From contig JACPXJ010000045.1 of the NCBI GenBank assembly GCA_016196605.1, positions 1 to 60,958 on the forward strand: 60,958 bases of DNA, read 5' to 3'. This document shows, in pieces, positions 35,595 to 59,794 of the stretch. The position numbers and the translations under genes were made by a program. Each line of letters starts with the position of its first letter. Within the stretch, counting starts at the first letter, position 1. The stretch comes from Candidatus Nomurabacteria bacterium. Its GTDB lineage: Bacteria > Patescibacteriota > Minisyncoccia > Phycocordibacterales > UBA9973. Below the pieces are notes generated by a model, which did not search any database, was not told where the DNA came from, and saw only the letters and a program-made list of their open reading frames with translations.

Positions 35595-37406
35595 ATGAGT
35601 TCATCGGTTGATCAAATAAAATCAAGAATAGATATCGTCTCGCTCGTGTCTTCCTATATGAAGCTCGACAAGTCGGGGAAAAGCTGGAAGGGCAAATGCC
35701 CGTTTCACAATGAAAAAACGCCGTCATTCTTTGTTTCGCCGGAGCGGGGCAGCTATTATTGTTTCGGCTGCGGGGCTTCGGGAGATATTTTTACTTTTGT
35801 CGAAGAGTTTGAGGGGCTGGACTTTAAAGGCGCGCTCAAACTTCTGGCTGACCGAGCCGGAGTGGTTCTCGAAGTTTACAGCAGGGAGAAGCAGGAAGAT
35901 AAAAGCGAAAAGGAAAAATTGTGTGAGGTGATGGAAGAGGCTACGAATTTCTTTGAGACTAATCTTGAAAGTAATATACAAGCGCAAGAATATTTGAAAT
36001 CCCGCGGACTTACAGAAAAAACTATCAAAGATTTCAGGATCGGCTGGGCTATTCTGGATTGGCGAAAGCTATATGATCACCTCAAATCCAAAAACTTTAC
36101 TGATAAAGAAATAGAGCTTGCGGGGCTGGCCAAGACCCCCTCCGCCCTTGGCACCTCCCCCTTATTGAGGGGGAGGGAGGGTGGGGGTCGTATGTATGAC
36201 CGCTTTCGCGGCCGAATTATGTTCCCTATTTCTGATCCAAGCGGCCGAATTATTGCCTTTTCAGGGCGCATTTTGGCGGATGACCCTTCGACAAGCTCAG
36301 GGCAGGTGGTAAGTCAAGCCAAGTATCTAAACAGTCCGGAGACTCCGATCTTTAATAAATCTTCGGTGCTTTTTGGCATAGACAAAGCGAAAGAATCGAT
36401 CCGCAAGAATAATTTTTCAATTCTGGTCGAAGGGCAGATGGACTTAGTCTTATCGCATCAGGCGGGATACAGAAATACGGTAGCCACTTCCGGTACCGCC
36501 TTGTCTGACTCTACAGTTTCCAAAGAAAATGTTATTTCGAATTTAGGGCTGGTACGCCGGCTTTCGCCCAATATTGTGCTCGCATTTGATGCCGATAAAG
36601 CGGGTTTCAACGCCGCTAACAGGGCCGGCAGGATCGCCCTATCCCTCGGCATGGATGTAAAGGTGGCGTCTTTGCCCGAAGGAGTCGATCCGGCGGATCT
36701 TATCTCAAAAAATGGAGGTGATGCATGGAAGGAAGCGATTAAAAATTCCAAGCATATTATCGAATTTATTCTTGGAAAGGTGATAAAAGACGCAGGAGAA
36801 GACACCCGCAAGGCTGGTAGACTTATCCGGGAAAAAGTATTACCTTATATAGATGCGATTGAAAGTTCAATCGAGCGGATGCACTTTCTTAAAAAGACAG
36901 CCGATGCTTCGGGGATAGGAGAGCAAGCGCTCAAGGATGATCTGGAGAAGGTAGCCCGGGATCAGAGGCATGAGAGGCGCGAGATCGAAGAAGCCAAAGA
37001 GTTTTCGAGAGAATCCAGAAAGGAATACATCTTAAGGAAACTGCTGGGGATTATTCTTTGGCAAAAAAGTTTGAAAGATAGCATTGCGGATCCGGATAAG
37101 GTAATGGAAAAAGTTAATCTTATTTTGAACGCGAGCAAGCAGGAATTATTGGAAAAAATAAAAACGAGCAGGGGAGATTTAATTTTCGAAGCAGAGGTGT
37201 TTTATGGGGAAAAGAAAGATAATTTAGAAAAAGATGTGAGCGAGCTTCTAAGAAATCTTGAAAAAGAGCATCTGAATGAAAAATTAGGGTTAAAAATGAG
37301 GGAATTGCATCATGCGGAAGAGATGAAAGATGCGGCAAAGTCTGAATTGATCATGAAAGAGATAAAAGAAATTAGCGCCAGAAAAGAAGAAATAAATAGG
37401 ATATGA
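35595..37406 (+). CDS. dnaG: DNA primase
   Basis: Zn ribbon [11 protein letters not shown]...CFGCG, RNA polymerase domain and Toprim (EGQMD, DADKAG). Confidence 0.93.
36134..36190. repeat. P element, in-frame in dnaG
   Basis: gaccccctccgccc-ttggca-cctccccctt-att-gagggggagg-gagggtgggggtc. Translated as [18 protein letters not shown]. Confidence 0.8.
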
Positions 37407-38683: not shown

Positions 38684-39364
38684 ATGAACAGAGATAATAT
38701 TTCAGTTGATGAGTATTACCATATTTATAATAGGGGAGTAGGTAAAAAGATAATTTTCAAGGACGACAGAGATAGGATCCGTTTCTTGTTTCTTATTTTG
38801 TATTTTCAAGCAGAAAATAACTTTCCACAAATTTCGAGAATTATATCCTCTTTTGTCAAACATCGAGTGTTTGACATTGATAATAAAATTATAAATAATA
38901 TAATCTCGAAAAGATTTGTCGAGTTGGCAGGTTTTGCTCTGGTGTCTAACCACTTTCATCTAATTGTTAAAGAAGCAAAAGAGGGTGGTATTGGAAAATA
39001 TATGCAAAGGGTTTTGAATTCTTATACAAAATATTTTAATACTCGTTATGGAGTTACGGGGCATCTTTTTGAAGGTCCTTATAAAGCGGTTCATGTTGAA
39101 GACAATGAACAGTTGTTGCACCTTTCCGCTTACGTACATCTAAATCCGCGAGAATTAAGCGAATGGAGAAAGAGGGAAGATAGCTTTCCTTGGTCAAGCT
39201 ATCAAGATTATGTAAAAGAAAATCGTTGGGGATATCTTCTGAAGAATGAAATTATCGTTGAGCAGTTTAGAAATAAAAAAGAATATAAAGATTTTGTCGA
39301 AACCAGTGGCGCAAAAGAGCTAGAAGAGGAGCTTGCTATAGACTGTCAAACATCGGGTGTTTGA
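38684..39364 (+). CDS. REP-associated tyrosine transposase-like protein (IS200/Y1 HUH family), RAYT-1
   Basis: YHIYNRGV N-terminus, HUH motif SNHFHLIV, conserved GHLFEGPYKAV and catalytic-Tyr region LSAYVHLNP. Confidence 0.75.
   Translation: MNRDNISVDEYYHIYNRGVGKKIIFKDDRDRIRFLFLILYFQAENNFPQISRIISSFVKHRVFDIDNKIINNIISKRFVELAGFALVSNHFHLIVKEAKEGGIGKYMQRVLNSYTKYFNTRYGVTGHLFEGPYKAVHVEDNEQLLHLSAYVHLNPRELSEWRKREDSFPWSSYQDYVKENRWGYLLKNEIIVEQFRNKKEYKDFVETSGAKELEEELAIDCQTSGV
38854..38876. repeat. S-type REP copy inside the RAYT-1 coding sequence
   Basis: tgtcaaacatcgagtgtttgaca. Translated as FVKHRVFDI. Confidence 0.75.
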
Positions 39365-44660: not shown

Positions 44661-45314
44661 ATGATTGGAGATATTGCTCATGTATGCAACAGGGGAGTTG
44701 AGAAGCGAAAAATTTTCATTAATGAGAGTGATTATTCTAGATTTGTGAACAATTTACTTTTGCTGAATAATAAGGAGGGTAAAATCAGAACGCGCAGGAA
44801 AAATCCGTTTGAAGAAGTCGAGGAAGTTTTACATGGCAGGAAAAAGTTGGTGGAAATACTCAAATGGAGCTTGTTGCCTAATCATTATCATTTATTGTTA
44901 TATGAAGTTGCTGAAGGCGGTATTTTAGAATTTACGAAACGTTTAGGCAATGCTTATACAAAATATTTTAATATTAAAAACAGCGGCAGAAGCGGATATT
45001 TATTTCAGAACAGTGCAAAAATAATTCCAGTCTCAAATAATAGCCAATTTCTTTATATACCGATTTACATCGATCTTAATTGTGCTGATCTAACATATCC
45101 AAATTGGAAAAATTCAAAAAATAACGATTCGAAGAAAATCATAAATTTTTTGGAATCGTACATGTGGTCAAGTTTTAGAGATTATTTTGGGAAAGGTGAG
45201 TTTTCGGCTGTCGTCAATAAAGAACTATTTTACGATTTGTTTGATACCAATGAGAAAGAATACAAAAAAGATATGGAAGGTTTTATCAGAGAACCAATCG
45301 TTCAAGATTTCTAA
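44661..45314 (+). CDS. REP-associated tyrosine transposase-like protein, RAYT-2
   Basis: HVCNRGV N-terminus, HUH motif PNHYHLLL, GNAYTKYFN...GYLFQNSAK, and a Tyr-containing IYIDLN region. Confidence 0.7.
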   Translation: MIGDIAHVCNRGVEKRKIFINESDYSRFVNNLLLLNNKEGKIRTRRKNPFEEVEEVLHGRKKLVEILKWSLLPNHYHLLLYEVAEGGILEFTKRLGNAYTKYFNIKNSGRSGYLFQNSAKIIPVSNNSQFLYIPIYIDLNCADLTYPNWKNSKNNDSKKIINFLESYMWSSFRDYFGKGEFSAVVNKELFYDLFDTNEKEYKKDMEGFIREPIVQDF

Positions 45315-47750: not shown

Positions 47751-48537
47751 GAAAACTAAACAGAAAAAATTTCTTCGCATAGGCCTAGCGGTCGTCCTTC
47801 TTGTTGTCCTGTTTTATTTTCGTTCCGGGATTTTCGGCGGCCTCTCTAGTGTTGCCCATGTTGTTTTTCGTCCTGTATTAATTTTAGGCGAGAGTATAGG
47901 AGAAAAAATAAAAAACATCGGGAATTTCTTTGCTTCCAAGAATTATTTAGAGGATAAGATAGAGAATCTAGAGTCAAAAATATCCGAGGGGGAGGGAAGA
48001 ATATCCAATTACAATTCTATTCTTGCGGAGAATCTTTCTTTGAAGGAAATTCTTGGCAGAAAAAATTTGAAAACCGAGATGATTCTCGCTGCGATTTTAG
48101 CGAAGCCGAATCAGAGTCCCTATGACACTCTCTTGATCGATATCGGAGTGAACGAGGGAGTAGAAAAAGGGGATATGGTTTTCGCGCTTATGGATGTTCC
48201 GCTTGGGGTTGTTTCTGAAGTTTACGCGAATACTTCAAAAGTGATTTTATTTTCATCAGCAGGCGTCAAAACGCAAGCGATAATCGAAAAAAATATTTTT
48301 GTGGAGCTTGTCGGGCGGGGCGGGGGCAATTTTGAAATGATATTGCCGAGAAATTTTACTCCGGAGAGGGGCGACGAGGCGGTGATCCCCGGCATCATGC
48401 CGTATGCGCTGGGAGTAGTCGAGACGATAATTTCCGATCCGCGCGATCCCTTTGTCAAAGCTCTGCTCGTCTCTCCCGTCAACATCCAAGAACTCAAATT
48501 CGTGCAAGTGGAGAGGTCCCGAGATCAGCCGAGATAG
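47731..48537 (+). CDS. mreC: rod-shape-determining protein MreC
   Basis: N-terminal TM helix, coiled coil, and beta domains (GDMVFA...GVVSEV, GDEAVIPG...LGVVETI). Overlaps the mreB end. Confidence 0.85.
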   Translation: MSYLLDKKTKQKKFLRIGLAVVLLVVLFYFRSGIFGGLSSVAHVVFRPVLILGESIGEKIKNIGNFFASKNYLEDKIENLESKISEGEGRISNYNSILAENLSLKEILGRKNLKTEMILAAILAKPNQSPYDTLLIDIGVNEGVEKGDMVFALMDVPLGVVSEVYANTSKVILFSSAGVKTQAIIEKNIFVELVGRGGGNFEMILPRNFTPERGDEAVIPGIMPYALGVVETIISDPRDPFVKALLVSPVNIQELKFVQVERSRDQPR

Positions 48538-48570
48538 GTTTATTTTTCGACCTATCTCGGCAGTTTTTTT
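48518..48570 (+). terminator. Z element copy 1, doubling as the mreC terminator
   Basis: ccgagatcagccgagatagg-tttatttttcga-cctatctcgg followed by cagttttttt. Supplies the last mreC codons (SRDQPR*). Confidence 0.7.
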
Positions 48571-48615
48571 ATCTCCTTCTCCTTTACAAGGAGAGGGTAA
48601 GGTGAGGTGAATTCT
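48571..48615. repeat. P element, intergenic
   Basis: atctccttctcctt-tac-aaggagagg-gtaaggtgaggtgaattctc. Confidence 0.8.
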
Positions 48616-48695
48616 CTAAGAACCTCCGATCTGAATTAGTCTGCGTTAGGTCTTGCCTAACGCATTACTCGAGTCTCTAAAAACATTACTTTGCC
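48585..48695 (+). repeat. degenerate relative of the X element (X3)
   Basis: The 3' part cgagtctctaaaaacattactttgccttcgc is about 26/30 identical to 57595-57624. The P-element tail can pair with it if G-U pairs are allowed. Contains the inner hairpin gcgttagg-tcttg-cctaacgc. Confidence 0.4.
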
Positions 48696-48767
48696 TTCGC
48701 AATATTAAGCTGGAGATTTATTTTTTGAACAAACCTTCCTAAACCATTTTCTATTATCTTTTTCTTG

Positions 48768-48811
48768 CCGAGATCAGCCGAGATATCTTGAAAACAAAGA
48801 ATATCTCGGTC
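48768..48811 (+). repeat. Z element copy 2 (left boundary of the giant-gene segment)
   Basis: gccgagatcagccgagatatc-ttgaaaacaaaga-atatctcggtc. Confidence 0.8.
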
Positions 48812-48817
48812 ATTACA

Positions 48818-48917
48818 GCTAGGGCAGTATAAAAAGGGTACGCATAAAATTCTACTGAATTTTTGCGCTGGGTACGGCCTACCCGGCCTGCGTAGCCCCT
48901 TTTTATACTGCCCTAGC
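48818..48917 (+). repeat. X element copy X1 (about 26-bp outer stem, conserved core)
   Basis: gctagggcagtataaaaagggtacgc ... gcgtagcccctttttatactgccctagc. The core contains aaaattc-tact-gaatttt and tacccggcct. Confidence 0.75.
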
Positions 48918-48943
48918 TTTCATAAATCTTGCATTACTAAAAA

Positions 48944-49056
48944 AAATCCCCGTTTTGACAAAAATTCTAGGAGTCGTATCAACCTGCTAAAGCAGTCCTG
49001 TCCTCATGGTCCTCGAGGGCGAAGGCGGGGGAATTTTTCGGTCAAAATGGGGATTT
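48944..49056 (+). repeat. Y hairpin (about 24-bp outer stem enclosing about 64 nt)
   Basis: aaatccccgttttgac+aaaaattc ... gaattttt+cg+gtcaaaatggggattt. One G-T position in the stem. Confidence 0.7.
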
Positions 49057-49065
49057 TGCTCTTAA

Positions 49066-49084
49066 CCGAGAATTACCGAGAAAG
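49066..49084 (+). repeat. partial Z-like direct repeat CCGAGA-N5-CCGAGA upstream of the giant ORF
   Basis: ccgagaattaccgagaaag. Confidence 0.4.
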
Positions 49085-49143
49085 CTGGAGTTATCCACAT
49101 ATCTTGCTACTTTTGCACTTGTTATCAAGGTATAATTAACACA

Positions 49144-52100
49144 ATGGATTCAGGTATATTTTCGCAAAATAATTCTAGTGAAAAAAAATATATCTCGACT
49201 AAGGAGGCGAGTATCCGTACGGGCTACTCCAAAGACTACATCGGGCAGCTCGCTCGGGCAGGAAAAATCGATTCCAAGAAAATTAATCGCGCCTGGTATG
49301 TGGAAGAAAGTTCGCTGTTTAGCTACAAAGACGTATCGGCTGAATTAAAGAAAGAGAATGGAAAAATTTTTGCTGAAGCAAATTCTCCTCTTGCGATTCC
49401 TCCCCTCCTTGTGGAGGAGGGGGTAAGGGGTGGTGATTCAGAAATTACCACCTCGCCCTTCGGGCACTCCTCCTTCATCAAGGAGGAGAGGGTAGCAGAA
49501 ATTTCCGATGTCTCTTCGGTTTTGAAAGTTTATCAGCACCAGCCGCAAAAAAATTATTTGGGCAAGCAAATTTTTTCAAAGTCGAGGGAGTTCCTCACCA
49601 TCGTCCTCACAGTCGGCGCGGCCGCGGGCATCATCTATGCGAATAATTTAAAACTCCCGAATTTTTTACAGGATTTTATCGGTCCGGAAAATTCTCAAAC
49701 TGCCAATACCATAGACTCCCTCAAAGATGCTTATGGGAATTTTGTTACCGATCCTGCGAATGCAAGCGTGAGCGAGAGTGTAGCGGTAAACATAAAGCAG
49801 GATGACTTGCTGAACGCTTACAAAAATTATCTAACCAAACCCGGGACCCCCTCTTCAATTCTCCCCCTTAACAAGGGGGAGAGGCCGAAGGCAGAAGGGG
49901 TAATTTCTTCTCTCCGCGCTGTCTCCCCGTCAATAAGCAATGCCAATCTGGTCTCCGCTATAAAAACTATTCTTGCCCAGAAAGAATTTCGGGATCAGCT
50001 TCGCGGACCGGAAGGACCACAGGGAGCATCGGGACTTCAGGGACCGCAAGGACCAACCGGAGTTCCTTCTATCTTTTCCATTCCCAGCGCGCCGACTGTC
50101 AACACTTTGGCTTATGTTCCCGCCACTGTCATTCCTCCCAATCCGTCGTCTAACTTTGCCGGCGCCACTTTGTTGGGAGCTACTAATCTATCTTCCGGCA
50201 GTTTTTCAACCACTACCGCCAGCATTGACACTTTGACGGTAAACGGGCAAGCCACCATTGGCGGAACATTAACAGTCACCGGCACGGCGACAATACCGAC
50301 CGTGGCCGCCACCGCTTCCACCACCGACACCCTCGCCGTGGGCGGGGGCTATGGCTCGACCGGAGCATCCATCTCGGCTATCGGCGACATTGAGGCGAAT
50401 GGCGCGCTCACTATAGACGGCGCTTCCACCCTGACCGGCTCGACAGTGATCGGCTCGGCCGCTTCGTCCACCACCACCATCGGCTCGACCACGACCCCGG
50501 GAGCGCTCACTTTGCGCGGAGCCACAACTTTGGATAATAATTTTTCGCAGACCGGCGCGAATACTTTCAGCACCGGCACGGGAGCGATCAGCCTAAACGG
50601 CGCGACCACGGTAACCGGCAGTAATACATTTGCAACCGGTACCGGCGCAGTCACGTTCAATAACGTCACCACAAACATCGCTTCTGACAATCCAATTATC
50701 GATCTTACTTCCGCCACGACGCTCTCTATCAACACCACGACTAACCGCCCGATAACCACCGGCACCGGACTCTTTACCGCCGGCGGCGATGTAACCATCG
50801 CCGGCACCACCGGCGCCACTCTCTCCGGTATCGGCGCGGGCATCACTTTCACCGGCACCGGCAATCACGACATCACCGCAAGTTCCGGTACTTTGCGTAT
50901 CGGATCAAATACCATCATCGGCAGTATCGAAGCGCTGGACGAAACGGTAGACATCGGCACGCCCGCTGTCCGTTTTGATAAATTTTACGCGAATGAAGTG
51001 AATGCGACGACCCTGGTCGGAACTATCACCGGAGGAAACTCCTCCGCCGAAACTTTCACCATCAATTCCGACAATGCCACCGCCGACACTGAAAATTCCT
51101 ATCTCTCTTTTGAAAGAGGCTCCAGCATTCCGAACGCTCTCCTCGGCTGGGATTCCACCAATGATGAGTTTGATTTGAATTCTGGGCTAAATGTTACCAA
51201 TACTATTGGATCAGCTGCGCATTTGCGACTGAGTTATGACGCTTCCAACTACAATAGTTTCACCACATCTTCGACCGGAGATCTGGCGATTAGTTCAACA
51301 GGTACCAATGGAAACATCACTTTAACTCCAAGCGGAACAGGCAAAACCGTCATCGCCTCAAACAGCACCTCATGGACGTATGCGTCCACAAATTTGACTC
51401 TGTCCACCCGCAGTAATGGCAGAGGATTGACGTTTGCGACCACGGATGCCAATGACTTCACCCTTTCGGTGTTCAGGAATTCAATACCGGCGGCGCCTAC
51501 AGGCATTACAGCGCTGGAATTTGAGGGGCTGGACGATGCCGGCGGATCAGTCGCTTATGGACAATTGACCGTTAATGCAACGGACATTGCCGCGGCCACT
51601 GTTACAGGAGAAATGGTGCTGTCGCTGGAAAAATCCAATGTGCATTCTCATGTTCTCCGTGTCCAACCAGCGACCATCCGGTTTTTCAATACTCGCACTA
51701 GCGATACCGTTTTCGAAGCGTTGCAACTCGACTGGACATCGAACATAGCGCGTATTTTCACTAATTATTCCGGCGGCGGTTCGGCGCGCGCTCTGCAACT
51801 TGGCGGCGGCGGCAGCACGCAATGGGAGTTTGCGGATGATGCGACCGGGTTCCGTCCGCTGACGGATGATTCGTCGTCCACTGGATTGCTTGGTACCACC
51901 ACGAAGCGAGTTTACCACGGGCGTTTTGGGACTGGCGGTGTGTGGATTGGCAACATGACGAGCGCGGCGGGTTTGCTCAATGTGCGTTCTTCAAGTGGCG
52001 GAACTTTTCGCGTCGACGCAACGTCCGGTGCGGCTTCTATTACGGACACCACCGCCTCCTCCTCCACCACCACTGGATCGCTCATCAACGCTGGAGGGTT

Positions 52101-55100
52101 TGGGAATGCGGGGGCGGCGTATTTTGGGGGAGCGTTGAATGTGGCAGGAACAACGGGTTCAACTTTTACTCCATCTGCTGCGGCAGATATGACCCATACC
52201 TTTACGTCCGCCAACGATGCAAACTTTGTAAGACTCTTTTTCGGACGTGCTTCGGCTACGGCTATGATTGGCGTAGCTGCAAGTGCCGCACAGTTTACGA
52301 CCTCGGATGTGGCGGGTGACCTGACCATTCGAAATGCTTCTGGCAAAATAAATTTCTCTAATGATGGTGGCATAACTACTGGAATGTCTTTGGGAGCTAG
52401 CAATCTTCTGACCCTCACCGCCGACCTCACCGTCACTGGTGGGAATGTGGGGGTGGGGACGGCGACAGTCGCATCACAGGCAATTCGTCTTGGTTCTACT
52501 GGGCTTACAGGGACAACTCAATATGGTATTGCCAATGTTATCGTGTTTGATAGTACGGTGGCGACTGTTGCAGCGCATGGAATTTATCTTGGCCAAAGAA
52601 CAGCGGCGACCCCTGGCACATTACCTGTAAGTGATTCTATCTTTATTGATGGGCCGACCATCGGATCTTCATCTGCTATCACAACCAACACCGGGTTGAG
52701 GATCGCCAACCAAGGCGCAACAGGCATCACTAACGCCTACGGCATAGACATCGCCGCACAGAGTGGTGCCGCGACAGTGAATGTGGGATTGAGGAATGCG
52801 GGGACGACGTTGCTTACCAATACTACAGCTTCAACCTCTTCGGCTACCGGAGCGTTGCAAGTTTCCGGCGGCGTTGGCATCGCGACGGCCGTCACCACAG
52901 CAACCAGCATGGGTCTCAATGTTGCCCATACTGGAGCCATCACCGGCACAGGATACGGAGGATATTTCAGCAAAACAGGCGCAAGCACGACCAATGTGGG
53001 GTTGTACGCCACCGCCTCGGGAGCCACCAACAACTACGCGGCTATTTTTGAAAGCGGCAATGTCGGTATCGGGACGACAGCGCCAAGCACGAAATTACAT
53101 ATCAGTGGAACTGGAAGTGGCACATATCTAAGAATAGAAGAGACTACGGCCGGTGAAGAAACCACGATTCAGTTGTTAGGTGACGCAACCAGAAAGAACT
53201 GGGAAATCGGCAAACAGCAAATAGGTAATGCTTTAACCTTTGCTTCTTCTACAGCAAATGGAGGTACGACTTTCACGAATTATAGGATGACTATTTTAGA
53301 TACAGGAGAAGTCGGCATCGGGACGACGAGTCCGGCGGGACTTCTCCACGTATCTTCCGACACCGTGGACTTAGGCAAAGGATATTTCACGCAAGCCAAC
53401 GCTTCCGCCGACAGCTTTGACTTCAACTTTAGAAAAGCGAGAGGCACGGGAGCCGTACCCACCGTCATCACCACTGCCGATGAACTGGGAGTTATCAACT
53501 TCACCGGCTACGGCGGAGCGGCCGGATACATTACCGGCGCCGCCATCAAAGGCATATCGAGCGGCACCATCGCCGACTCCAGAGTTCCCGGACAATTATC
53601 CTTCTGGACAGGCACCGACGCCGCGCCTTCTGTCTTGACGGAGAGAATGAGAATAGATAACGCGGGACAGGTGAATGTTTTGGCTACCACCGCCTCCACT
53701 TCCTCCACCACCGGCTCCCTCATCAACGCCGGAGGGTTTGGGAATGCGGGGGCGGCGTATTTTGGGGGAGCGTTGAATGTGGCAGGAACAACGGGTTCAA
53801 CTTTTACTCCATCTGCTGCGGCAGATATGACCCATACCTTTACGTCCGCCAACGATGCTAATTACGCACGCTTAAACATAGGCCGCGCATCAGCATCATT
53901 CATGCTTGGAGTGGCCGCTTCACTAGGACAATTTATCGCAACCGATGCGGCTGGGGACGCTGTGATTAGGACTCTGTCGGGGAACATCAATTTCTCAAAC
54001 GATGGTGGTGCAACACTGGGAATGCGGTTGGGGACGAGTAATTTGCTGACACTCGCTGGCGACCTCACTGTCACTGGCGGGAATGTGGGGGTGGGGGCGG
54101 CGACGAATTCAAGTATCGGCGTATTTGTCACTGGTGCGTCTCTGCTGAGCGGGGTTTCTCAGACTGGACTCTACAGTGACTCAACTTTCAGCAGTGCCGC
54201 TACCACATCTGCTCAGGCGGGACGATTTGAAGTCAGGACTGCAGCGGCTTCGTTTACTGTAACTAATGCTCGTGCATTGTTTCTCGTGGCTCCAACATTA
54301 GGGTCTGGTTCTGCTATTACGAACAACTATGGTATTCAGATACAGAATATGGGCGCGACAGGCGTTACCAATGCTTACGGCCTCGACATAGCAGCACAGT
54401 CCGGCGCGGCGACGACGAATGTGGGATTGAGGAATGCGGGGACGACGAGTCTGCTGGCCCAGCTTTCCGTTTCACTAGACCTAGCTTCCGATTATGCCGC
54501 CACTTTCTTCAACGATGGCAACAATGCCAACCGGAGCGGACTCTTGGTCAAAGCCGGCCTGGATGACAGCACCCTCGCCGGACCTTCCACCTTAATTGAT
54601 TTCCAAGACGGGGATGGCGGCGCGATCGGTTCCATTTCTTTCGGCTCTTCCGCCACCGCCTACAACACCACTTCCGATGAACGCTTGAAGAATCTAGTTA
54701 ATGAACAAACTACTTCTTCCCTTAACATCTTAAATCAAATCAAAATACATGATTTCACCTGGAAAGACGATGTCAGCAGCAATCTCTATACCGGAGTCTT
54801 CGCTCAAGAGCTCTACACTATCTATCCCCACGCCGTTACCAAGCCGATCAATCCTGCCGACAGCTGGATGGTGGACTATTCCAAACTCACTCCGGTCATG
54901 ATCGCTTCTATTCAGGAGCTGGATCTTACCCTAGAGGGACTGGAGGAGAGAGTGGCGGCCCTCGAAGAGGGCAGTCCTTCGTTGGGTTCAGGATCTTCGA
55001 GTATTTTAGACACGGTGAAAAACTGGCTCGCCTCTGCGGGGAACGGCATAACCGATATATTTGCCGGAACGCTTCACGTGACAAACCAGCTCTGCATCGG

Positions 55101-55536
55101 CAATACCTGCGTAAACGAAGCTCAGCTGCAGCAGATTCTGCAGAGTACTGGGCAAGCGAGCGCGAACAGTTCTTCTTCGACAAGCGGAGGGGGAAGCACA
55201 ACCGATACTACAGATACGACCCCCTCTGACTCCCCCTTAGCAGGTGGAGAGGAGACCCTCACCCCCGACCCCTCTCCATCTACGGATGGAGAGGGTGGCA
55301 AAGCAGTAGCAGAGCCGGGTGAGGCAGATCCTACAACCACGATTTCAGAAGAAACCACGACGACTCTCTCCGCCTCAGCTGAGGAGGGGGCCGCGCCAGA
55401 GGGCGGGCAAGCAGGGGGTGGTGATGTTACAACCACGGATTTGACTCTTTCGGCTGACTCAGGGCAAGCAAGCTCAACAGAGGCAACACCAACTCCGGAA
55501 CCAACTCCTGCACCTACCCCTGAAGTAACCCCGTAA
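49144..55536 (+). CDS. giant (2130 aa) membrane-anchored fibre protein: N-terminal HTH, TM helix, collagen-like triplets, repetitive T/G/S/A-rich region, S74-type intramolecular chaperone domain and a low-complexity tail
   Basis: HTH-like YISTKEASIRTGYSKDYIGQLARAGKIDSKKINRAWYV. TM helix FLTIVLTVGAAAGIIY. GPEGPQGASGLQGPQGPTGVP. Repeated GNVGIGTT motifs. TSDERLKN...VFAQELYTIYPHAV...VDYSKLTPVMIASIQEL. Confidence 0.85.
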   Translation: MDSGIFSQNNSSEKKYISTKEASIRTGYSKDYIGQLARAGKIDSKKINRAWYVEESSLFSYKDVSAELKKENGKIFAEANSPLAIPPLLVEEGVRGGDSEITTSPFGHSSFIKEERVAEISDVSSVLKVYQHQPQKNYLGKQIFSKSREFLTIVLTVGAAAGIIYANNLKLPNFLQDFIGPENSQTANTIDSLKDAYGNFVTDPANASVSESVAVNIKQDDLLNAYKNYLTKPGTPSSILPLNKGERPKAEGVISSLRAVSPSISNANLVSAIKTILAQKEFRDQLRGPEGPQGASGLQGPQGPTGVPSIFSIPSAPTVNTLAYVPATVIPPNPSSNFAGATLLGATNLSSGSFSTTTASIDTLTVNGQATIGGTLTVTGTATIPTVAATASTTDTLAVGGGYGSTGASISAIGDIEANGALTIDGASTLTGSTVIGSAASSTTTIGSTTTPGALTLRGATTLDNNFSQTGANTFSTGTGAISLNGATTVTGSNTFATGTGAVTFNNVTTNIASDNPIIDLTSATTLSINTTTNRPITTGTGLFTAGGDVTIAGTTGATLSGIGAGITFTGTGNHDITASSGTLRIGSNTIIGSIEALDETVDIGTPAVRFDKFYANEVNATTLVGTITGGNSSAETFTINSDNATADTENSYLSFERGSSIPNALLGWDSTNDEFDLNSGLNVTNTIGSAAHLRLSYDASNYNSFTTSSTGDLAISSTGTNGNITLTPSGTGKTVIASNSTSWTYASTNLTLSTRSNGRGLTFATTDANDFTLSVFRNSIPAAPTGITALEFEGLDDAGGSVAYGQLTVNATDIAAATVTGEMVLSLEKSNVHSHVLRVQPATIRFFNTRTSDTVFEALQLDWTSNIARIFTNYSGGGSARALQLGGGGSTQWEFADDATGFRPLTDDSSSTGLLGTTTKRVYHGRFGTGGVWIGNMTSAAGLLNVRSSSGGTFRVDATSGAASITDTTASSSTTTGSLINAGGFGNAGAAYFGGALNVAGTTGSTFTPSAAADMTHTFTSANDANFVRLFFGRASATAMIGVAASAAQFTTSDVAGDLTIRNASGKINFSNDGGITTGMSLGASNLLTLTADLTVTGGNVGVGTATVASQAIRLGSTGLTGTTQYGIANVIVFDSTVATVAAHGIYLGQRTAATPGTLPVSDSIFIDGPTIGSSSAITTNTGLRIANQGATGITNAYGIDIAAQSGAATVNVGLRNAGTTLLTNTTASTSSATGALQVSGGVGIATAVTTATSMGLNVAHTGAITGTGYGGYFSKTGASTTNVGLYATASGATNNYAAIFESGNVGIGTTAPSTKLHISGTGSGTYLRIEETTAGEETTIQLLGDATRKNWEIGKQQIGNALTFASSTANGGTTFTNYRMTILDTGEVGIGTTSPAGLLHVSSDTVDLGKGYFTQANASADSFDFNFRKARGTGAVPTVITTADELGVINFTGYGGAAGYITGAAIKGISSGTIADSRVPGQLSFWTGTDAAPSVLTERMRIDNAGQVNVLATTASTSSTTGSLINAGGFGNAGAAYFGGALNVAGTTGSTFTPSAAADMTHTFTSANDANYARLNIGRASASFMLGVAASLGQFIATDAAGDAVIRTLSGNINFSNDGGATLGMRLGTSNLLTLAGDLTVTGGNVGVGAATNSSIGVFVTGASLLSGVSQTGLYSDSTFSSAATTSAQAGRFEVRTAAASFTVTNARALFLVAPTLGSGSAITNNYGIQIQNMGATGVTNAYGLDIAAQSGAATTNVGLRNAGTTSLLAQLSVSLDLASDYAATFFNDGNNANRSGLLVKAGLDDSTLAGPSTLIDFQDGDGGAIGSISFGSSATAYNTTSDERLKNLVNEQTTSSLNILNQIKIHDFTWKDDVSSNLYTGVFAQELYTIYPHAVTKPINPADSWMVDYSKLTPVMIASIQELDLTLEGLEERVAALEEGSPSLGSGSSSILDTVKNWLASAGNGITDIFAGTLHVTNQLCIGNTCVNEAQLQQILQSTGQASANSSSSTSGGGSTTDTTDTTPSDSPLAGGEETLTPDPSPSTDGEGGKAVAEPGEADPTTTISEETTTTLSASAEEGAAPEGGQAGGGDVTTTDLTLSADSGQASSTEATPTPEPTPAPTPEVTP
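49396..49496. repeat. P element inverted pair (tails facing inwards), in-frame in the giant ORF
   Basis: cctcccctcc-ttgt-ggaggaggggg-taaggggtggtgattc aga aattaccacctcgccc...ctcctcctt-catc-aaggaggag. Confidence 0.75.
49847..49905. repeat. P element, in-frame in the giant ORF
   Basis: accccctcttc-aat-tctccccctt-aac-aagggggaga-ggccgaaggcagaaggggt. Translated as TPSSILPLNKGERPKAEGV. Confidence 0.8.
52093..52220 (+). repeat. 128-nt block identical to 53731-53858 (internal duplication of the giant ORF)
   Basis: ggagggtttgggaatgcggggg...gtccgccaacgatgc read identically at both places. The offset is 1638 nt (in-frame). Confidence 0.85.
53731..53858 (+). repeat. second copy of the 128-nt identical block
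   Basis: See 52093-52220. Confidence 0.85.
55218..55299. repeat. P-like elements in the C-terminal tail of the giant ORF
   Basis: gaccccctctgactccccctt...; cctctccatc-tac-gatggagagg. Translated as [27 protein letters not shown]. Confidence 0.6.
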
Positions 55537-55580
55537 TAATTTGTTAGGATTTTCGGCATAGCTATGGTAAAATACAAAAT

Positions 55581-55844
55581 ATGAAAAATTTGAGAAACCA
55601 AAATTTAACATTTTCGATAATTGTTGAAAAAGACAACAACGGCTATTTTGCTGAGTGCAGGGAGCTTCAGGGATGCTATACAGAGGGTAAAACATACGAA
55701 GAAGCGATAAAAAATATCAAAGAAGTTATCGAACTCCACATCGAAGATAGAAAAGAACGCGGGGATTTTAAGGTTCTGCAAAATCAAAAAGATCATGTTT
55801 CTCTAACTACTTTTTCTATCTCTGTGCCGCAGTATGTCTCCTAA
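55581..55844 (+). CDS. hicB: HicB-family antitoxin
   Basis: FSIIVEKDNNGYFAECRELQGCYTEGKTYEEAIKNIKEVIELHIE (UPF0150/HicB fold pattern). Confidence 0.85.
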   Translation: MKNLRNQNLTFSIIVEKDNNGYFAECRELQGCYTEGKTYEEAIKNIKEVIELHIEDRKERGDFKVLQNQKDHVSLTTFSISVPQYVS

Positions 55845-56061
55845 ACAAATACCCAAAAATTGCAAGCAGTTAATAACCTTAGCGGAAAAAGCTGGTTTTG
55901 TGTTTTCTCGTCAGAAAGGATCGCATATGATTTTTTACCATGAGAGAGGTCTTAGGTTAACTATTCCAAATCATGGAACAAAGGCTCTGCATCCAAAAAT
56001 AGTGAAAAGCGTTTTAAGAGACATTGAAAATGCAAGCTTATTTACTCACGACGAAGTTTGA
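55834..56061 (+). CDS. hicA: HicA-family mRNA interferase toxin
   Basis: LITLAEKAGFVFSRQKGSHMIFYH...LTIPNHGTKALHPKIVKSVLRDI. Overlaps hicB by 11 nt. Confidence 0.85.
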   Translation: MSPKQIPKNCKQLITLAEKAGFVFSRQKGSHMIFYHERGLRLTIPNHGTKALHPKIVKSVLRDIENASLFTHDEV

Positions 56062-56107
56062 AACTAAGTTTTGTAGTTGTTAGATCTTGCCTTACAATTT
56101 TAATACA

Positions 56108-56151
56108 GCCGAGATATCTTTAAAAGACAAGCTATCTCGGCTGATCTCGGC
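56108..56151 (-). repeat. Z element copy 3, inverted (right boundary of the giant-gene segment)
   Basis: Reverse complement gccgagatcagccgagatagc-ttgtcttttaaag-atatctcggc matches 48768-48811. Confidence 0.8.
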
Positions 56152-56167
56152 GTGGAAAATTCAAAAG

Positions 56168-56197
56168 TCCCCTTGATAAGGGGGATTTAGGGGGTTA
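56168..56197. repeat. partial P element, intergenic
   Basis: gtcccctt-gat-aaggggga-tttagggggtt. Confidence 0.6.
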
Positions 56198-56208
56198 TAT
56201 TTGAATCA

Positions 56209-57534
56209 ATGCATTTTGAGATAAAGAAAAAACTAAAGAATAGTCTCGGTCGCGCTGGAGTTTTAACCACAGCTCATGGAGCCATAGAAACTCCGGCCTT
56301 TGTCTCAGTTGGCACAAAAGGAACAATAAAATCTCTAAACCCAGAGCAGGTAAAAGAAGCTGGAGCGCAGGTAGTTCTTGCGAATACTTATCATTTATAT
56401 TTGCAGCCCGGAGACGAGCTGGTGCGGGATGCCGGCGGACTGCATAAATTTATGAATTGGCCGGGACCTCTCATGACCGACTCCGGCGGCTTCCAGGTTT
56501 TTTCTCTCGGCGCGGCTTATGGCAAGGATGTCTCCAAGATAATACCCCTACCCAACCTCCCCCTTAATAAGGGGGAGGAGAAAGGAGGGGGTCCGGAACG
56601 TTTTGACGATTCGGCTGCCCCTCGTTTGGCAAAAATCGGGGCTGATGGCGTTTCCTTTAAATCGCACCTTGATGGTTCTATTCATTACATTACTCCGGAA
56701 AAATCAATCCAGATCCAGCACAATCTCGGCGCGGATATAATTTTCGCTTTTGATGAAGCCACCAGTCCAGCGGAGGATTACAAATATCAGGAGGAAGCTC
56801 TTGCCCGCACTCATGCTTGGGCGAAGCGAAGTCTAGAACATCATCAGAAATTATGTTTCACGCCAGAAGCTTTCTTTTCGGGGTCGCCATTTTCCTGCTG
56901 GAAAATTTGGCTCCATCCTCAGCTCGCCAGCCTGCGGAGACCCCGCAAAGAAACTTCTGTCGCTTCACATCCTGCGCTTTTTGGCATAGTTCAGGGCGGA
57001 CTGGAGAAGAATCTGCGCAAAAAGTCAGCGGAATATATCGGGAGCCTGCCTTTTGATGGCTTCGGCATCGGCGGCTCATATACCAAGGAGCACATGGAAG
57101 TAGTGGTTAAACTCGTAAATGAAATCCTGCCGGAAGAAAAGCCTCGCCACCTGCTCGGCATCGGCGAGCCGGAGGATCTTTTCATGGGCGTGGAAAATGG
57201 CGTGGATCTTTTCGACTGCGTGGCGCCGACTCGTCTCGGCAGAAACGGAACTATTTATACCCACCAAGGAAAAATGATTATTATGAATAAAGAATTTAGA
57301 AAAGATTTTAATCCCATCGAGTCTGATTGCAGTTGCTACACTTGCAAAAATTATACTAGAGCATATGTTGCTCATTTATTTCACGGCAAAGAAATGCTCG
57401 CTGGGACTTTGGCTTCAATCCACAATTTATATTTCATCGTCAACTTGGTGAAAAATATCCGGCAATCTATTCTCGACGAAAATTTTTTCGAATTTAAGGA
57501 GGAGTTTTTAAAAAATTACAGGAAGGTAAAGTAA
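56209..57534 (+). CDS. tgt: queuine tRNA-ribosyltransferase (with two repeat-derived insertions)
   Basis: TPAFVSVGT, LANTYHL, LMTDSGGFQVFSL, ALFGIVQGG, GFGIGG, CxCxxC Zn site (CSCYTCKNYTRAY). Confidence 0.93.
   Translation: MHFEIKKKLKNSLGRAGVLTTAHGAIETPAFVSVGTKGTIKSLNPEQVKEAGAQVVLANTYHLYLQPGDELVRDAGGLHKFMNWPGPLMTDSGGFQVFSLGAAYGKDVSKIIPLPNLPLNKGEEKGGGPERFDDSAAPRLAKIGADGVSFKSHLDGSIHYITPEKSIQIQHNLGADIIFAFDEATSPAEDYKYQEEALARTHAWAKRSLEHHQKLCFTPEAFFSGSPFSCWKIWLHPQLASLRRPRKETSVASHPALFGIVQGGLEKNLRKKSAEYIGSLPFDGFGIGGSYTKEHMEVVVKLVNEILPEEKPRHLLGIGEPEDLFMGVENGVDLFDCVAPTRLGRNGTIYTHQGKMIIMNKEFRKDFNPIESDCSCYTCKNYTRAYVAHLFHGKEMLAGTLASIHNLYFIVNLVKNIRQSILDENFFEFKEEFLKNYRKVK
56543..56594. repeat. P element, in-frame in tgt
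   Basis: acccctacccaa-cctccccctt-aat-aagggggagg-agaaaggagggggtcc. Translated as IPLPNLPLNKGEEKGGGP. Confidence 0.8.
56864..56959 (+). repeat. X element copy X5, in-frame in tgt (96 nt)
   Basis: Arms cagaagctttcttttcggggtc / gagaccccgcaaagaaacttctg. Core attttcc-tgc-tggaaaat...tcgccagcctgcg. Translated within CFTPEAFFSGSPFSCWKIWLHPQLASLRRPRKETSV. Confidence 0.75.
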
Positions 57535-57623
57535 TATTTTAAAGCACGTATAATTTTCTGCTGAAAATTTACTCCGTCTCGGTTACCCGCCTCCGAAGTC
57601 TCTAAAATATTACTTTACCTTCC
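57521..57623 (+). repeat. X element copy X2 at the tgt stop codon (perfect 21-bp arms, 61-nt core)
   Basis: ggaaggtaaagtaatatttta ... taaaatattactttaccttcc, followed by tttttt. Core aattttc-tgct-gaaaatt...ctcggttacccgcctccgaag. Confidence 0.8.
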
Positions 57624-57676
57624 TTTTTTACTTTACTTTCTTTACTTAGCTGTTATATACTAAACAAATTAAAGAA

Positions 57677-59077
57677 ATGAAAAAGCTAGCGAAGAAAAAG
57701 GGCGCGCAGAAAAATTGTAGAAAATTTTGGAAGCTCGGAGTGGAAGAATGGAATACTCAGTTTTTTAATGTGAGCCGCGATGCGGAGCTCACCGTGACTG
57801 AAGGCCATCATATTTACAATCTTGCCGACATGGCCCGGAAGTATGGCACGCCGCTCCAGGTGGTTTTCCCTTTTATTCTAGAAGACCGGCTGAAGGATCT
57901 CATCGGCTATTTTCAGGCCTACATGAAGATTTACGGATACAAAGGAAAGTTCTTTTACCATTATCCGATGAAGGTGAATCAAAACAAAGAATTTGTCCTG
58001 CCGCTTATCTCCGAAGGCGCAAACTTGGAAGTGACTTCTGCCAACGAACTCTGGCTGGTGAAGAAGCTCTGGGAAGGAGAAAGATTTAACAGCAAAATAC
58101 GCGTGCTTTGCAACGGGCCGAAAACTCACGCCTATCTCGATCTGATAGAGGAACTGCGCTCTAAGGGGATGAATGTAGCGCCGATCATCGAGGGTCCCGA
58201 GGAAATCGAGCGGCTCACAAAATATAAGGGGGACATAGGGCTTCGCATAGACCTCGCGATCAAGGCGGACACGCACTGGGATAAAAAATTTGACCGCTTC
58301 GGCCTTTCCGAAAAAGACGCGCTCTCGATGCCAAAGATAAAGAACCTGAAGATCATGCATTATCATATGGGATCGCAGATAAAAACGCAGAAAAGCATTT
58401 TTGACGCGGTCAAGCGGGCTTTCGGAATTTATGCGCAATTGCAAAAAATACATCCCGGGCTCGACACCCTCGATATCGGCGGCGGGTTCGGCGTTCCTTA
58501 TGAAAAGAAAAAGTTTTATACCGCGAAAGGCGTTTCCAGCAAGATCATTAAAATATTGAAGAATTTATCCGACAAAGCCGGCATTCGCCATCCGAACTTG
58601 GTGGTGGAATGGGGGCAGTATATCGTCGCTCCGGCGGAGATAACGATCTATAAAGTGCTCTCTGAAAAAATAATACCTAAGGCGAATGCCAAGAGCTGGT
58701 ATGTCATTGACGGAAGTTTTATGAATGATCTGAAAGACACCTGGGCAATCCATCAGAAGTGGCATGCCATACCAGCAAACAATATGCACGGAGGGCTGAA
58801 GACCACATGGCTCGCGGGCAGCACTTGCGATTCGGATGATAAGTATACCGCCGGCGGCAACTATATCCTTTTGCCGAAACTTCATGATAACGAGGAGCAA
58901 TATGTGGCAGTTCTCGACACCGGCGCCTATCAGGACGGGCTTTCTTCGCACCATTGCCTTCTTTCGAGTCCCATGAAGCTGGTCGTTGCCGACGGCACAG
59001 TCAGTATCTCCAGAAAGCGCGAGACCGCGGACTCTATCGGCAAACTTTTCGGCTGGACCAACGGGACAAAAAATTGA
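57677..59077 (+). CDS. PLP-dependent decarboxylase, Orn/DAP/Arg decarboxylase family (SpeA-like)
   Basis: YPMKVNQNKEF (PLP lysine), HYHMGSQI, DIGGGFGVPY, GSTCDSDD. Confidence 0.75.
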   Translation: MKKLAKKKGAQKNCRKFWKLGVEEWNTQFFNVSRDAELTVTEGHHIYNLADMARKYGTPLQVVFPFILEDRLKDLIGYFQAYMKIYGYKGKFFYHYPMKVNQNKEFVLPLISEGANLEVTSANELWLVKKLWEGERFNSKIRVLCNGPKTHAYLDLIEELRSKGMNVAPIIEGPEEIERLTKYKGDIGLRIDLAIKADTHWDKKFDRFGLSEKDALSMPKIKNLKIMHYHMGSQIKTQKSIFDAVKRAFGIYAQLQKIHPGLDTLDIGGGFGVPYEKKKFYTAKGVSSKIIKILKNLSDKAGIRHPNLVVEWGQYIVAPAEITIYKVLSEKIIPKANAKSWYVIDGSFMNDLKDTWAIHQKWHAIPANNMHGGLKTTWLAGSTCDSDDKYTAGGNYILLPKLHDNEEQYVAVLDTGAYQDGLSSHHCLLSSPMKLVVADGTVSISRKRETADSIGKLFGWTNGTKN

Positions 59078-59570: not shown

Positions 59571-59671
59571 TTTAGCAATAAGAAACGGTCGTTTGCTAAT
59601 GCTAAATTAGATGATGTGAGTCAGCATTTTGGCCGTAGTCGGGGCTAACGTTGTTTGTGTGAAATTTTTTA

Positions 59672-59766
59672 GAAATCAAACTTTTTCCGGTACGGAATTT
59701 TTGAAGCTTAAAAATTCCTGAAATTCTCGGTTCGCCAGCCTCGAAACTCCTCCAAAAGTTTATTTC
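59672..59766 (+). repeat. X element copy X4 (AT-rich 13-bp arms with one bulge)
   Basis: gaaatcaaactttt ... aaaagtttatttc. Core ggaattttt-gaagctt-aaaaattcc ... ctcggttcgccagcctcgaa. Confidence 0.55.
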
Positions 59767-59794
59767 CAAAAAATTATTAAAAACTTAGATTTTT

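Follow-up and report, generated by a model that had tools for sequence, protein, structure and literature searches.

Hairpin-forming repeats of two families are carried in frame by a tgt gene of Candidatus Nomurabacteria and probably resemble the palindromic elements of Rickettsia

Contig JACPXJ010000045.1 (assembly GCA_016196605.1, Candidatus Nomurabacteria bacterium) was analysed over its 60,958 nucleotides, hereafter called the window. It carries a tgt gene whose reading frame runs through copies of two unrelated repeat elements, here named P and X, and ends inside a further copy of X. More copies of both are found in the window, in other genes and between genes. We argue that P and X are selfish hairpin elements similar to the Rickettsia palindromic elements (RPEs), translated as surface loops of the Tgt protein and not spliced out of its message, and we put the probability of this explanation at about 0.78. 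The tgt gene and the repeat copies of the window are as follows.

56209 to 57534, + strand: tgt (queuine tRNA-ribosyltransferase), 441 aa; host of P and X1, with its stop and last codons inside X2
56542 to 56595, + strand: P in tgt, a nested G/C-rich palindrome of about 54 nt, ATACCCCTACCCAACCTCCCCCTTAATAAGGGGGAGGAGAAAGGAGGGGGTCCG, translated as IPLPNLPLNKGEEKGGGP
56864 to 56959, + strand: X1, 96 nt, CAGAAG...CTTCTG, 32 codons in frame in tgt; a long outer stem, a hairpin (P2) with a TGCT loop and the core CAGCTCGCCAGCCTGCGGAG
57520 to 57624, + strand: X2, overlapping the 3' end of tgt; arms at 57520-57541 and 57603-57624, a run of T after the 3' arm
48815 to 48920, + strand: X3, intergenic, downstream of mreC
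59663 to 59775, + strand: X4, intergenic, downstream of a DUF192 gene
36134 to 36189, + strand: P copy in dnaG, in frame; the frame differs from that of the tgt copy and gives a 19-residue peptide
49845 to 49901, + strand: P copy in frame in an open reading frame (ORF) of 2130 aa, peptide ILPLNKGERPKAEGV
56167 to 56195, + strand: truncated P-like palindrome, intergenic, directly upstream of tgt

The product of the ORF at 56209-57534 matches the Pfam family TGT (PF01702) with E=5e-136 and the TGT structures of Z. mobilis and T. maritima with E about 1e-92. A preliminary description of this DNA, according to which two repeat segments lie inside an otherwise typical Tgt, is confirmed. The alignment with Z. 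mobilis TGT is broken at two places. At the first, site 1, chain residues 113 and 114 flank query residues 103-139, and at the second, site 2, query residues 211-250 stand opposite chain residues 185-191. Site 1 contains the P peptide and site 2 contains X1. Relative to the Z. mobilis enzyme there are 37 extra residues at site 1 and a net 33-34 at site 2, the latter being consistent with the 32 codons of X1. The extent and frame first given for X1 proved exact, and X2 does begin at the last tgt codons as had been described: its 5' arm holds the final four of them (RKVK) and the TAA stop (57532-57534). P, placed earlier at 56543-56594, is present together with its peptide, although the element is one base longer at each end.

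The four X copies of the window have identical architecture and arms that are unrelated in sequence. X1 folds at -47.3 kcal/mol (z = -5.4), and the fold z-scores of the copies range from -5 to -10. MAFFT and RNAalifold misaligned the P2 loop when applied to the raw copies, and the family was therefore modelled from a two-sequence seed with a hand-written structure, which was then iterated. A covariance model of L001 and L003 (numbers with L denote loci outside the window) finds X1 at 53 bits (E = 1.6e-9) and another three copies in the window at 48822-48914, 57530-57615 and 59675-59765 (E 0.007-0.016), each of them on the + strand. The next-best matches of this model in the window are simple hairpins only. 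Model R2, built from six copies without X4, finds X4 at E=1.4e-5.

P is dispersed as well. The window has 4 instances of its palindrome core CCCCTTRATAAGGGGGA, where 0.01 would be expected by chance, and the fold z-scores of the copies are -2.7 to -3.4. Near-identical copies are present in other contigs of the Candidate Phyla Radiation (CPR, Patescibacteria), namely L157, where the host gene is a different one, L001 and L206. Seven of the eight copies with the exact palindrome are inside ORFs. In tgt, 17 residues from P stand in place of about 10 native ones and lengthen the protein by a net 7 aa. The truncated P-like palindrome upstream of tgt (56167-56201) overlaps a promoter-like TTGATA-17-TATATT; promoter-like sites overall are no commoner than in shuffled sequence.

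How the two sites vary was followed in an alignment of the 120 closest Tgt proteins (69-76% identical, 396-493 aa), the closest genes coming from Candidatus Nomurabacteria and other CPR metagenome-assembled genomes. At site 1 the same 37-aa segment, AAYGKDISKITKITDPSLLIPERFDDSDAPRLAKIGQ, is found in 102 of the 120, and most of the excess over Z. mobilis TGT is therefore a native loop of the lineage. Only three proteins carry the P peptide there: that of the window, P0023 and P0103, the last having the site sequences of L001. The right-hand junction differs in every one of them, and the three are not monophyletic in a rough neighbour-joining tree. At site 2 there is no insert in 20 proteins; X is present in forward orientation in frame a in 36, forward in frame b in 4 and reversed in 8, and 52 proteins have something else. 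The empty site is a linker of 12-19 aa, mostly LEEHKKLNTENKIS or close to it, with the pattern KLN(T/K)ExKIS, and because this short sequence is shared the empty state looks ancestral. In the 100 proteins with a filled site the segment is 26-83 aa long and belongs to several insert families. The peptide GALPLGSSACETPR is common among relatives, P0035 has a P-like peptide at site 2 and P0081 has two elements in tandem. Sister taxa often differ in their site-2 state, as judged from an approximate neighbour-joining tree, so that the distribution of the inserts is patchy. The P0035 peptide, SPLLVEEGAGGGDS, resembles the peptides of small palindromes in the 2130-aa ORF of the window, which are described below. 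It had been proposed that both segments are insertions. This holds against unrelated Tgt enzymes and also against the closest orthologues, of which 20 have only the short linker at the X1 site and 117 of 120 are without P, but only part of the additional length at site 1 is due to insertion.

Seven tgt inserts at site 2 were read as DNA. Each is a long hairpin that keeps the frame and contains no stop codon, and they differ in length and sequence. The inserts of L001 and L003 are the same element as X1, with related arms and the same core, CTCGGCTCG(C/T)CAGCCTGCGAGAC. The TGCT loop of P2 is the same in all three, while its stem differs: TTTTCC/GGAAAA in the window, CTCCGTC/GACGGAG in L003 and TTCGCG/CGCGGA in L001. 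The window, L001 and L003 share one reading frame at the arms. Their cores are translated differently, into ASLRRP in the window but into SACETP in both of the other loci. This indicates that the nucleotides of the core are conserved and its peptide is not. In L082 the window-type frame is found again. L081 has, at the same position, the reverse complement of the L003-type element, with the peptide EGVSQADEPRGSA and the reversed core read as SQADEP. Other long hairpins occupy the site in L002, L004 and L206. The empty site reads ACA GAA AAT AAA ATT TCT, a small AT-rich quasi-palindrome (AGAAAAT..AATTTCT; L204 3598-3657, L205 1033-1092), and in filled sites the outer ends of the arms keep GAA.../...TTC, which suggests that X inserted at the apex of a palindrome that was already there.

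Some tgt genes of this group have additional peculiarities. Those of L003, L004 and L060 contain small in-frame inserts elsewhere that are rich in G, P, S and R (TCGGERQDLKGVQGLALRNKGY in the zinc-site region of L003, RGSPREALAKWG in L004 and 28 aa in L060), and in-frame insertion therefore seems to be general in these genomes. In the tgt gene of L023 (7741-9036) one TGA interrupts the frame, exactly where FMNW has its conserved Trp; the frame is otherwise intact, with no out-of-frame element, and a sequencing error, a pseudogene or recoding of TGA are possible.

Outside tgt, X is a large family. A metagenome scan with its 19-nt core, CTCGGCTCGYCAGCCTGCG, gave at least 120 loci. Among the 123 matches listed, 7 are in tgt; of those outside tgt a few are chance matches in GC-rich DNA and the rest are X elements elsewhere. 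Pair statistics were calculated for the 96 model-confirmed copies among the scan matches listed. In these, 87.1% of the pair cells hold standard pairs, compared with 59.4% after shuffling and 42-54% in slid controls. All 7 pairs of P2 and all 14 of the outer stem covary, and P2 is 96.5% paired; one predicted helix of three pairs is poorly supported (57% paired). What is conserved in X is a nucleic-acid architecture and not the peptide: a long stem on the outside, the P2 hairpin, which covaries and has a YTGCTR loop, and the near-invariant core. The six-copy model also finds copies in L003 and L005 and none in the 51 non-CPR loci among 80 loci of relatives. Arm sequence is common to both X copies of L005, and likewise to the copies of one subfamily (subfamily iii), which indicates that whole elements have been duplicated.

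Of the 96 copies, 37 lie wholly within an ORF of 150 aa or more, 20 of them in the same orientation and 17 in the opposite one. Such ORFs span 72% of random 90-nt windows in the X loci, so X is depleted in genes and far from excluded from them. Judged by eye from flanking motifs, with no family search, the hosts look like IleRS, UvrD/PcrA, RecG and TsaD. Several orthologues of the UvrD-like and of the RecG-like proteins have X at the same loop, in opposite orientations in the former and in different frames in the latter. The coding copies belong mostly to a GC-rich subfamily (mean GC 0.52 vs 0.45), in which five of the six frames were free of stop codons on inspection. Copies that keep the frame and avoid stops, in many genes and in both orientations, point to selection acting on the translated product and not to removal from the RNA.

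The consequence for the Tgt protein was examined with AlphaFold2, using 59 orthologues as the input alignment. The model has a predicted template-modelling (TM) score, pTM, of 0.79 and agrees with 1q2r_A at a TM score of 0.92 and a root-mean-square deviation of 2.2 Å. Only two long segments have a predicted local distance difference test (pLDDT) value <50, residues 97-139 and 222-251, and P and X1 lie inside them. With the TGT fold itself modelled confidently, the original placement of the inserts in surface loops agrees with the model, and P and X1 are predicted to be disordered surface loops. X1 follows a long helix (191-222) and precedes the strand ALFGIVQGG (256-261). It would thus be on the side where a barrel strand has its N-terminal end, in TIM-barrel enzymes the face opposite the active site. 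P falls within the long excursion that follows the active-site strand TDSGGFQ and would be nearer to the catalytic face, but the loop is already long and variable in this lineage. Residues D91, D182, D336, C374, C376, C379 and H405 are invariant in the 59 aligned orthologues; by position we take them to be the counterparts of Z. mobilis D102, D156 and D280 and of the zinc ligands. It is likely that the enzyme functions with both inserts. The preliminary description had left a choice between a functional enzyme and removal of the elements at the RNA level; the former is the probable one, and the latter found no support.

The explanation we favour can be put as follows. P and X would be interspersed repeats of CPR genomes, small, non-coding and hairpin-forming, and would make up two families unrelated to each other. 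They would spread now, or would have done so once, as folded single-stranded DNA recognised by an enzyme acting in trans, with a preference for the apexes of small palindromes already in place. Copies that enter a gene would survive only if the frame is kept, no stop is introduced and the insertion falls in a dispensable loop of the protein. X2 would have landed at the end of tgt, which it now provides with the last four codons and the stop. Complementarity of the arms may be kept by template switching within the element or by selection, and the elements may be able to invert through their own arms. Forward and reversed X at a single site could arise either by such inversion or by independent insertions in both directions, and the two are equal alternatives on the present sequences.

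As for the enzyme, the Y1/HUH transposase-like genes of the window are the only candidates seen:

38684 to 39364, + strand: Y1_Tnp gene (IS200-like or REP-associated-transposase-like), a circumstantial candidate for a mobilising enzyme acting in trans
44661 to 45314, + strand: a second, weaker Y1_Tnp-like gene with the same circumstantial status

One of the two proteins weakly resembles the REP-associated tyrosine transposases (REP_Tyr_transpos), where REP stands for repetitive extragenic palindrome; it reaches 22 bits in NCBIfam against a cut-off of 80 bits. Homologues occur in 4 of the 86 X-bearing loci, the loci that bear homologues being L081, L096, L112, L126 and L003. A hairpin-specific enzyme of the Y1 kind, acting on single-stranded DNA, would fit a family defined by structure together with a small number of conserved loops.

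Several points weigh against selfish elements that are translated. The Y1_Tnp genes never adjoin X or P, either in the window or in the X-bearing loci; the junctions compared show no target-site duplication; and neither an autonomous parent element nor an insertion sequence (IS) with matching ends is present in the loci read, a non-exhaustive search. The core of X is conserved far above what is expected of decaying selfish DNA. Site 2 of tgt is occupied in 83% of the orthologues, which could reflect selection for a hairpin or a linker at that place. Intergenic X between co-directional genes favours the orientation of the genes (21 same, 7 opposite), a bias compatible with a replication-strand effect or with a role at the RNA level. 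Some of the evidence also carries its own bias. The orthologue list was derived from proteins and is biased to intact ORFs, and it is from preserved ORFs that we infer translation through the inserts. The pair counts of X come from an alignment fitted to the model and favour the modelled structure, and the 96 copies were picked by the exact 19-mer, which makes the invariance of the core circular within that set. Independent support for core conservation comes from nine copies found prior to the 19-mer scan.

The strongest of the rival explanations is that X is primarily a functional module of structured RNA or single-stranded DNA, for instance one that binds a protein, stabilises the mRNA or regulates, and that the hairpin at site 2 is kept for its function. 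The near-invariant core and the covarying stems across many lineages would be expected of it, as would the core that stays while frame and peptide change, the orientation bias between genes and some hairpin-coding insert in 100 of the 120 orthologues. However, the copies within genes show no preference of orientation (20 to 17), X lies in either orientation at the same tgt, UvrD and RecG sites, and the tgt site is filled by many unrelated insert families or, in 20 of the 120, by none. A run of T follows X in only 7 of the 65 copies outside ORFs, so it is not generally a terminator, and no Rfam family matches it. We consider a functional module unlikely. Far less probable still is that the elements are removed from the tgt transcript in the manner of an intron, or that the message is processed at the long stems, leaving a protein without them. 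A long perfect stem would bring both junctions together, and the rRNA genes of CPR bacteria are known to carry intervening sequences; but removal would need neither a kept frame nor the absence of stops, both of which are found in the seven tgt inserts and in 37 copies in other genes, and it does not agree with inverted copies at the same sites, with the absence of any match to group I or II introns or small ribozymes in the Rfam searches, or with the failure of a hammerhead-like reading. That the segments are native, fast-evolving linkers of the Tgt lineage or assembly artefacts is hardly credible: site 1 is indeed a 37-aa loop that is peculiar to the lineage and missing from Z. mobilis TGT, but unrelated genes and intergenic DNA have the same X core and P sequence, within the window as well as across many independent assemblies, and the empty-site orthologues share a conserved short linker.

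Other identities for the elements were considered and set aside. Neither X nor P has a match in Rfam 15, searched with the whole window at gathering thresholds and with 56100-57700 at E up to 10; only tRNAs and noise were returned. The reverse strand of X reads CUGAYGAG as in a hammerhead ribozyme, but its Y makes the required A6 variable, and on inspection GAAA is absent. An intrinsic terminator is suggested by the run of T after X2, yet few other copies have one. No RYYYAAC/GTTRRRY boxes of an integron attC site were seen by eye, and no complementarity that would make a pseudoknot between the P2 loop and the core is consistent among the copies. A REP-associated tyrosine transposase (RAYT) system was rejected as well, with 37 of 96 X copies intragenic and no X or P beside a Y1_Tnp gene.

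The surroundings of tgt in the window differ from those in relatives. In the relatives L082, L083, L204 and L206 mreC is followed directly by tgt. In the window about 7.6 kb lie between the two (48538-56208), comprising X3, another long hairpin, the repetitive 2130-aa ORF (49144-55536) and a hicB/hicA pair (55581-56061), and in L206 an ORF of >2138 aa is found just after tgt instead. The long hairpin beside X3 (48943-49057, 115 nt) has a long stem with arms AAAATCCCCGTTTTGAC.../...GTCAAAATGGGGATTTT and a different interior; it matches neither Rfam nor the X model and may be another family. The 2130-aa ORF translates more small G/C-rich palindromes, at 49399-49491 and 55230-55293, with the peptides IPPLLVEEGVRGGD...SSFIKEE and SPLAGGEE...STDGEG. 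A third hairpin family, GCCGAGATA...TATCTCGGC, is present at 48528-48561, 48780-48810 and 56101-56134; its copy after mreC (48528-48561) is followed by a run of T and looks like an ordinary intrinsic terminator.

Among known systems the RPEs are the closest. According to the account in PMC10969869 (citing Ogata et al. 2000, 2002), they comprise several palindromic repeat families, about half of the copies being in frame in unrelated genes and compatible with the fold of the protein. P and X are likewise dispersed and palindromic, belong to unrelated families and lie in frame in unrelated housekeeping genes, where they would be read through. Multi-copy dispersal, hairpin formation and in-frame insertion are all found here, the last in tgt, dnaG and the 2130-aa ORF of the window and elsewhere in IleRS-, UvrD-, RecG- and TsaD-like genes; compatibility with the protein surface and fold was seen for Tgt only, in the AlphaFold2 model. 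The hosts are alike too, Rickettsia and CPR bacteria both having small genomes and a symbiotic or parasitic way of life. The differences are in the first place the lineage, CPR, and the sequences, in which no resemblance to RPEs was recognised, RPE sequences not having been compared directly. Further, an RPE family encodes a conserved peptide, whereas a single tgt site shows no fewer than three translations of the X core; X combines a near-invariant 19-nt core with highly variable arms; and one tgt site is filled by different elements in about 83% of the orthologues.

Two other kinds of element share some of these properties. Like the miniature transposable elements with inverted repeats (MITEs) ERIC, Correia/NEMIS, RUP and BOX, X is about 100-140 bp long, non-coding and hairpin-forming, with many inter- and intragenic copies, and in its subfamily iii the terminal inverted repeats GAATTACGAAACTC...GAGTTTCGTAATTC are conserved across loci. 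Unlike in MITEs, most X copies, the four of the window included, have only the internal core conserved and not the ends, and neither a target-site duplication nor a parent IS with matching ends is seen in the loci read. With the REP/REPIN-RAYT systems X has in common a long-hairpin palindrome defined by its structure and Y1_Tnp-family genes in the same genome. A REP has a GTAG or CGTC head 5' of its palindrome; P2 is preceded by GTAG or GTAC in some copies (L005, X3 and X4) and by GTCGC in X1, L001 and L003. However, REPs are extragenic, unlike 39% of the X copies and most copies of P, which are in ORFs; X is a unit of three helices and not a doublet of identical REPs; and the Y1 genes of the window are not flanked by X or P.

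No account of elements like these in CPR bacteria turned up in our search of the literature, which was of incomplete coverage. The phenomenon is of a kind already known, the lineage is new for it, and the X family appears to be very widespread and so far undescribed. When protein-coding palindromes were described in Rickettsia they were taken for a peculiarity of that group; they are now found, seemingly on a larger scale, in the CPR, a very large bacterial branch whose members have tiny genomes and are mostly uncultivated. They would explain part of the odd insertions that hamper annotation and structure prediction of CPR proteins, and the 19-nt core together with a covarying hairpin gives a simple nucleotide signature by which such insertions can be found and masked. 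As X is a defined, conserved and structured element, its partner enzyme and its way of movement can now be searched for. Close relatives show site 2 of tgt empty, filled by a forward, reversed or tandem element, or replaced, which makes it a natural system in which gain, loss and inversion can be followed. More tentatively, and with clearly more doubt than confidence, X may be a new class of element specific to the CPR: a three-helix module of single-stranded DNA or RNA with a deeply conserved 19-nt core, recognised by an enzyme, inserting at the apexes of small palindromes already present, flipped through its arms and having given rise to new surface loops in many of the housekeeping proteins of the CPR, a large share of them. 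If this is true, X would be a major, unrecognised source of the protein insertions that are typical of CPR bacteria.

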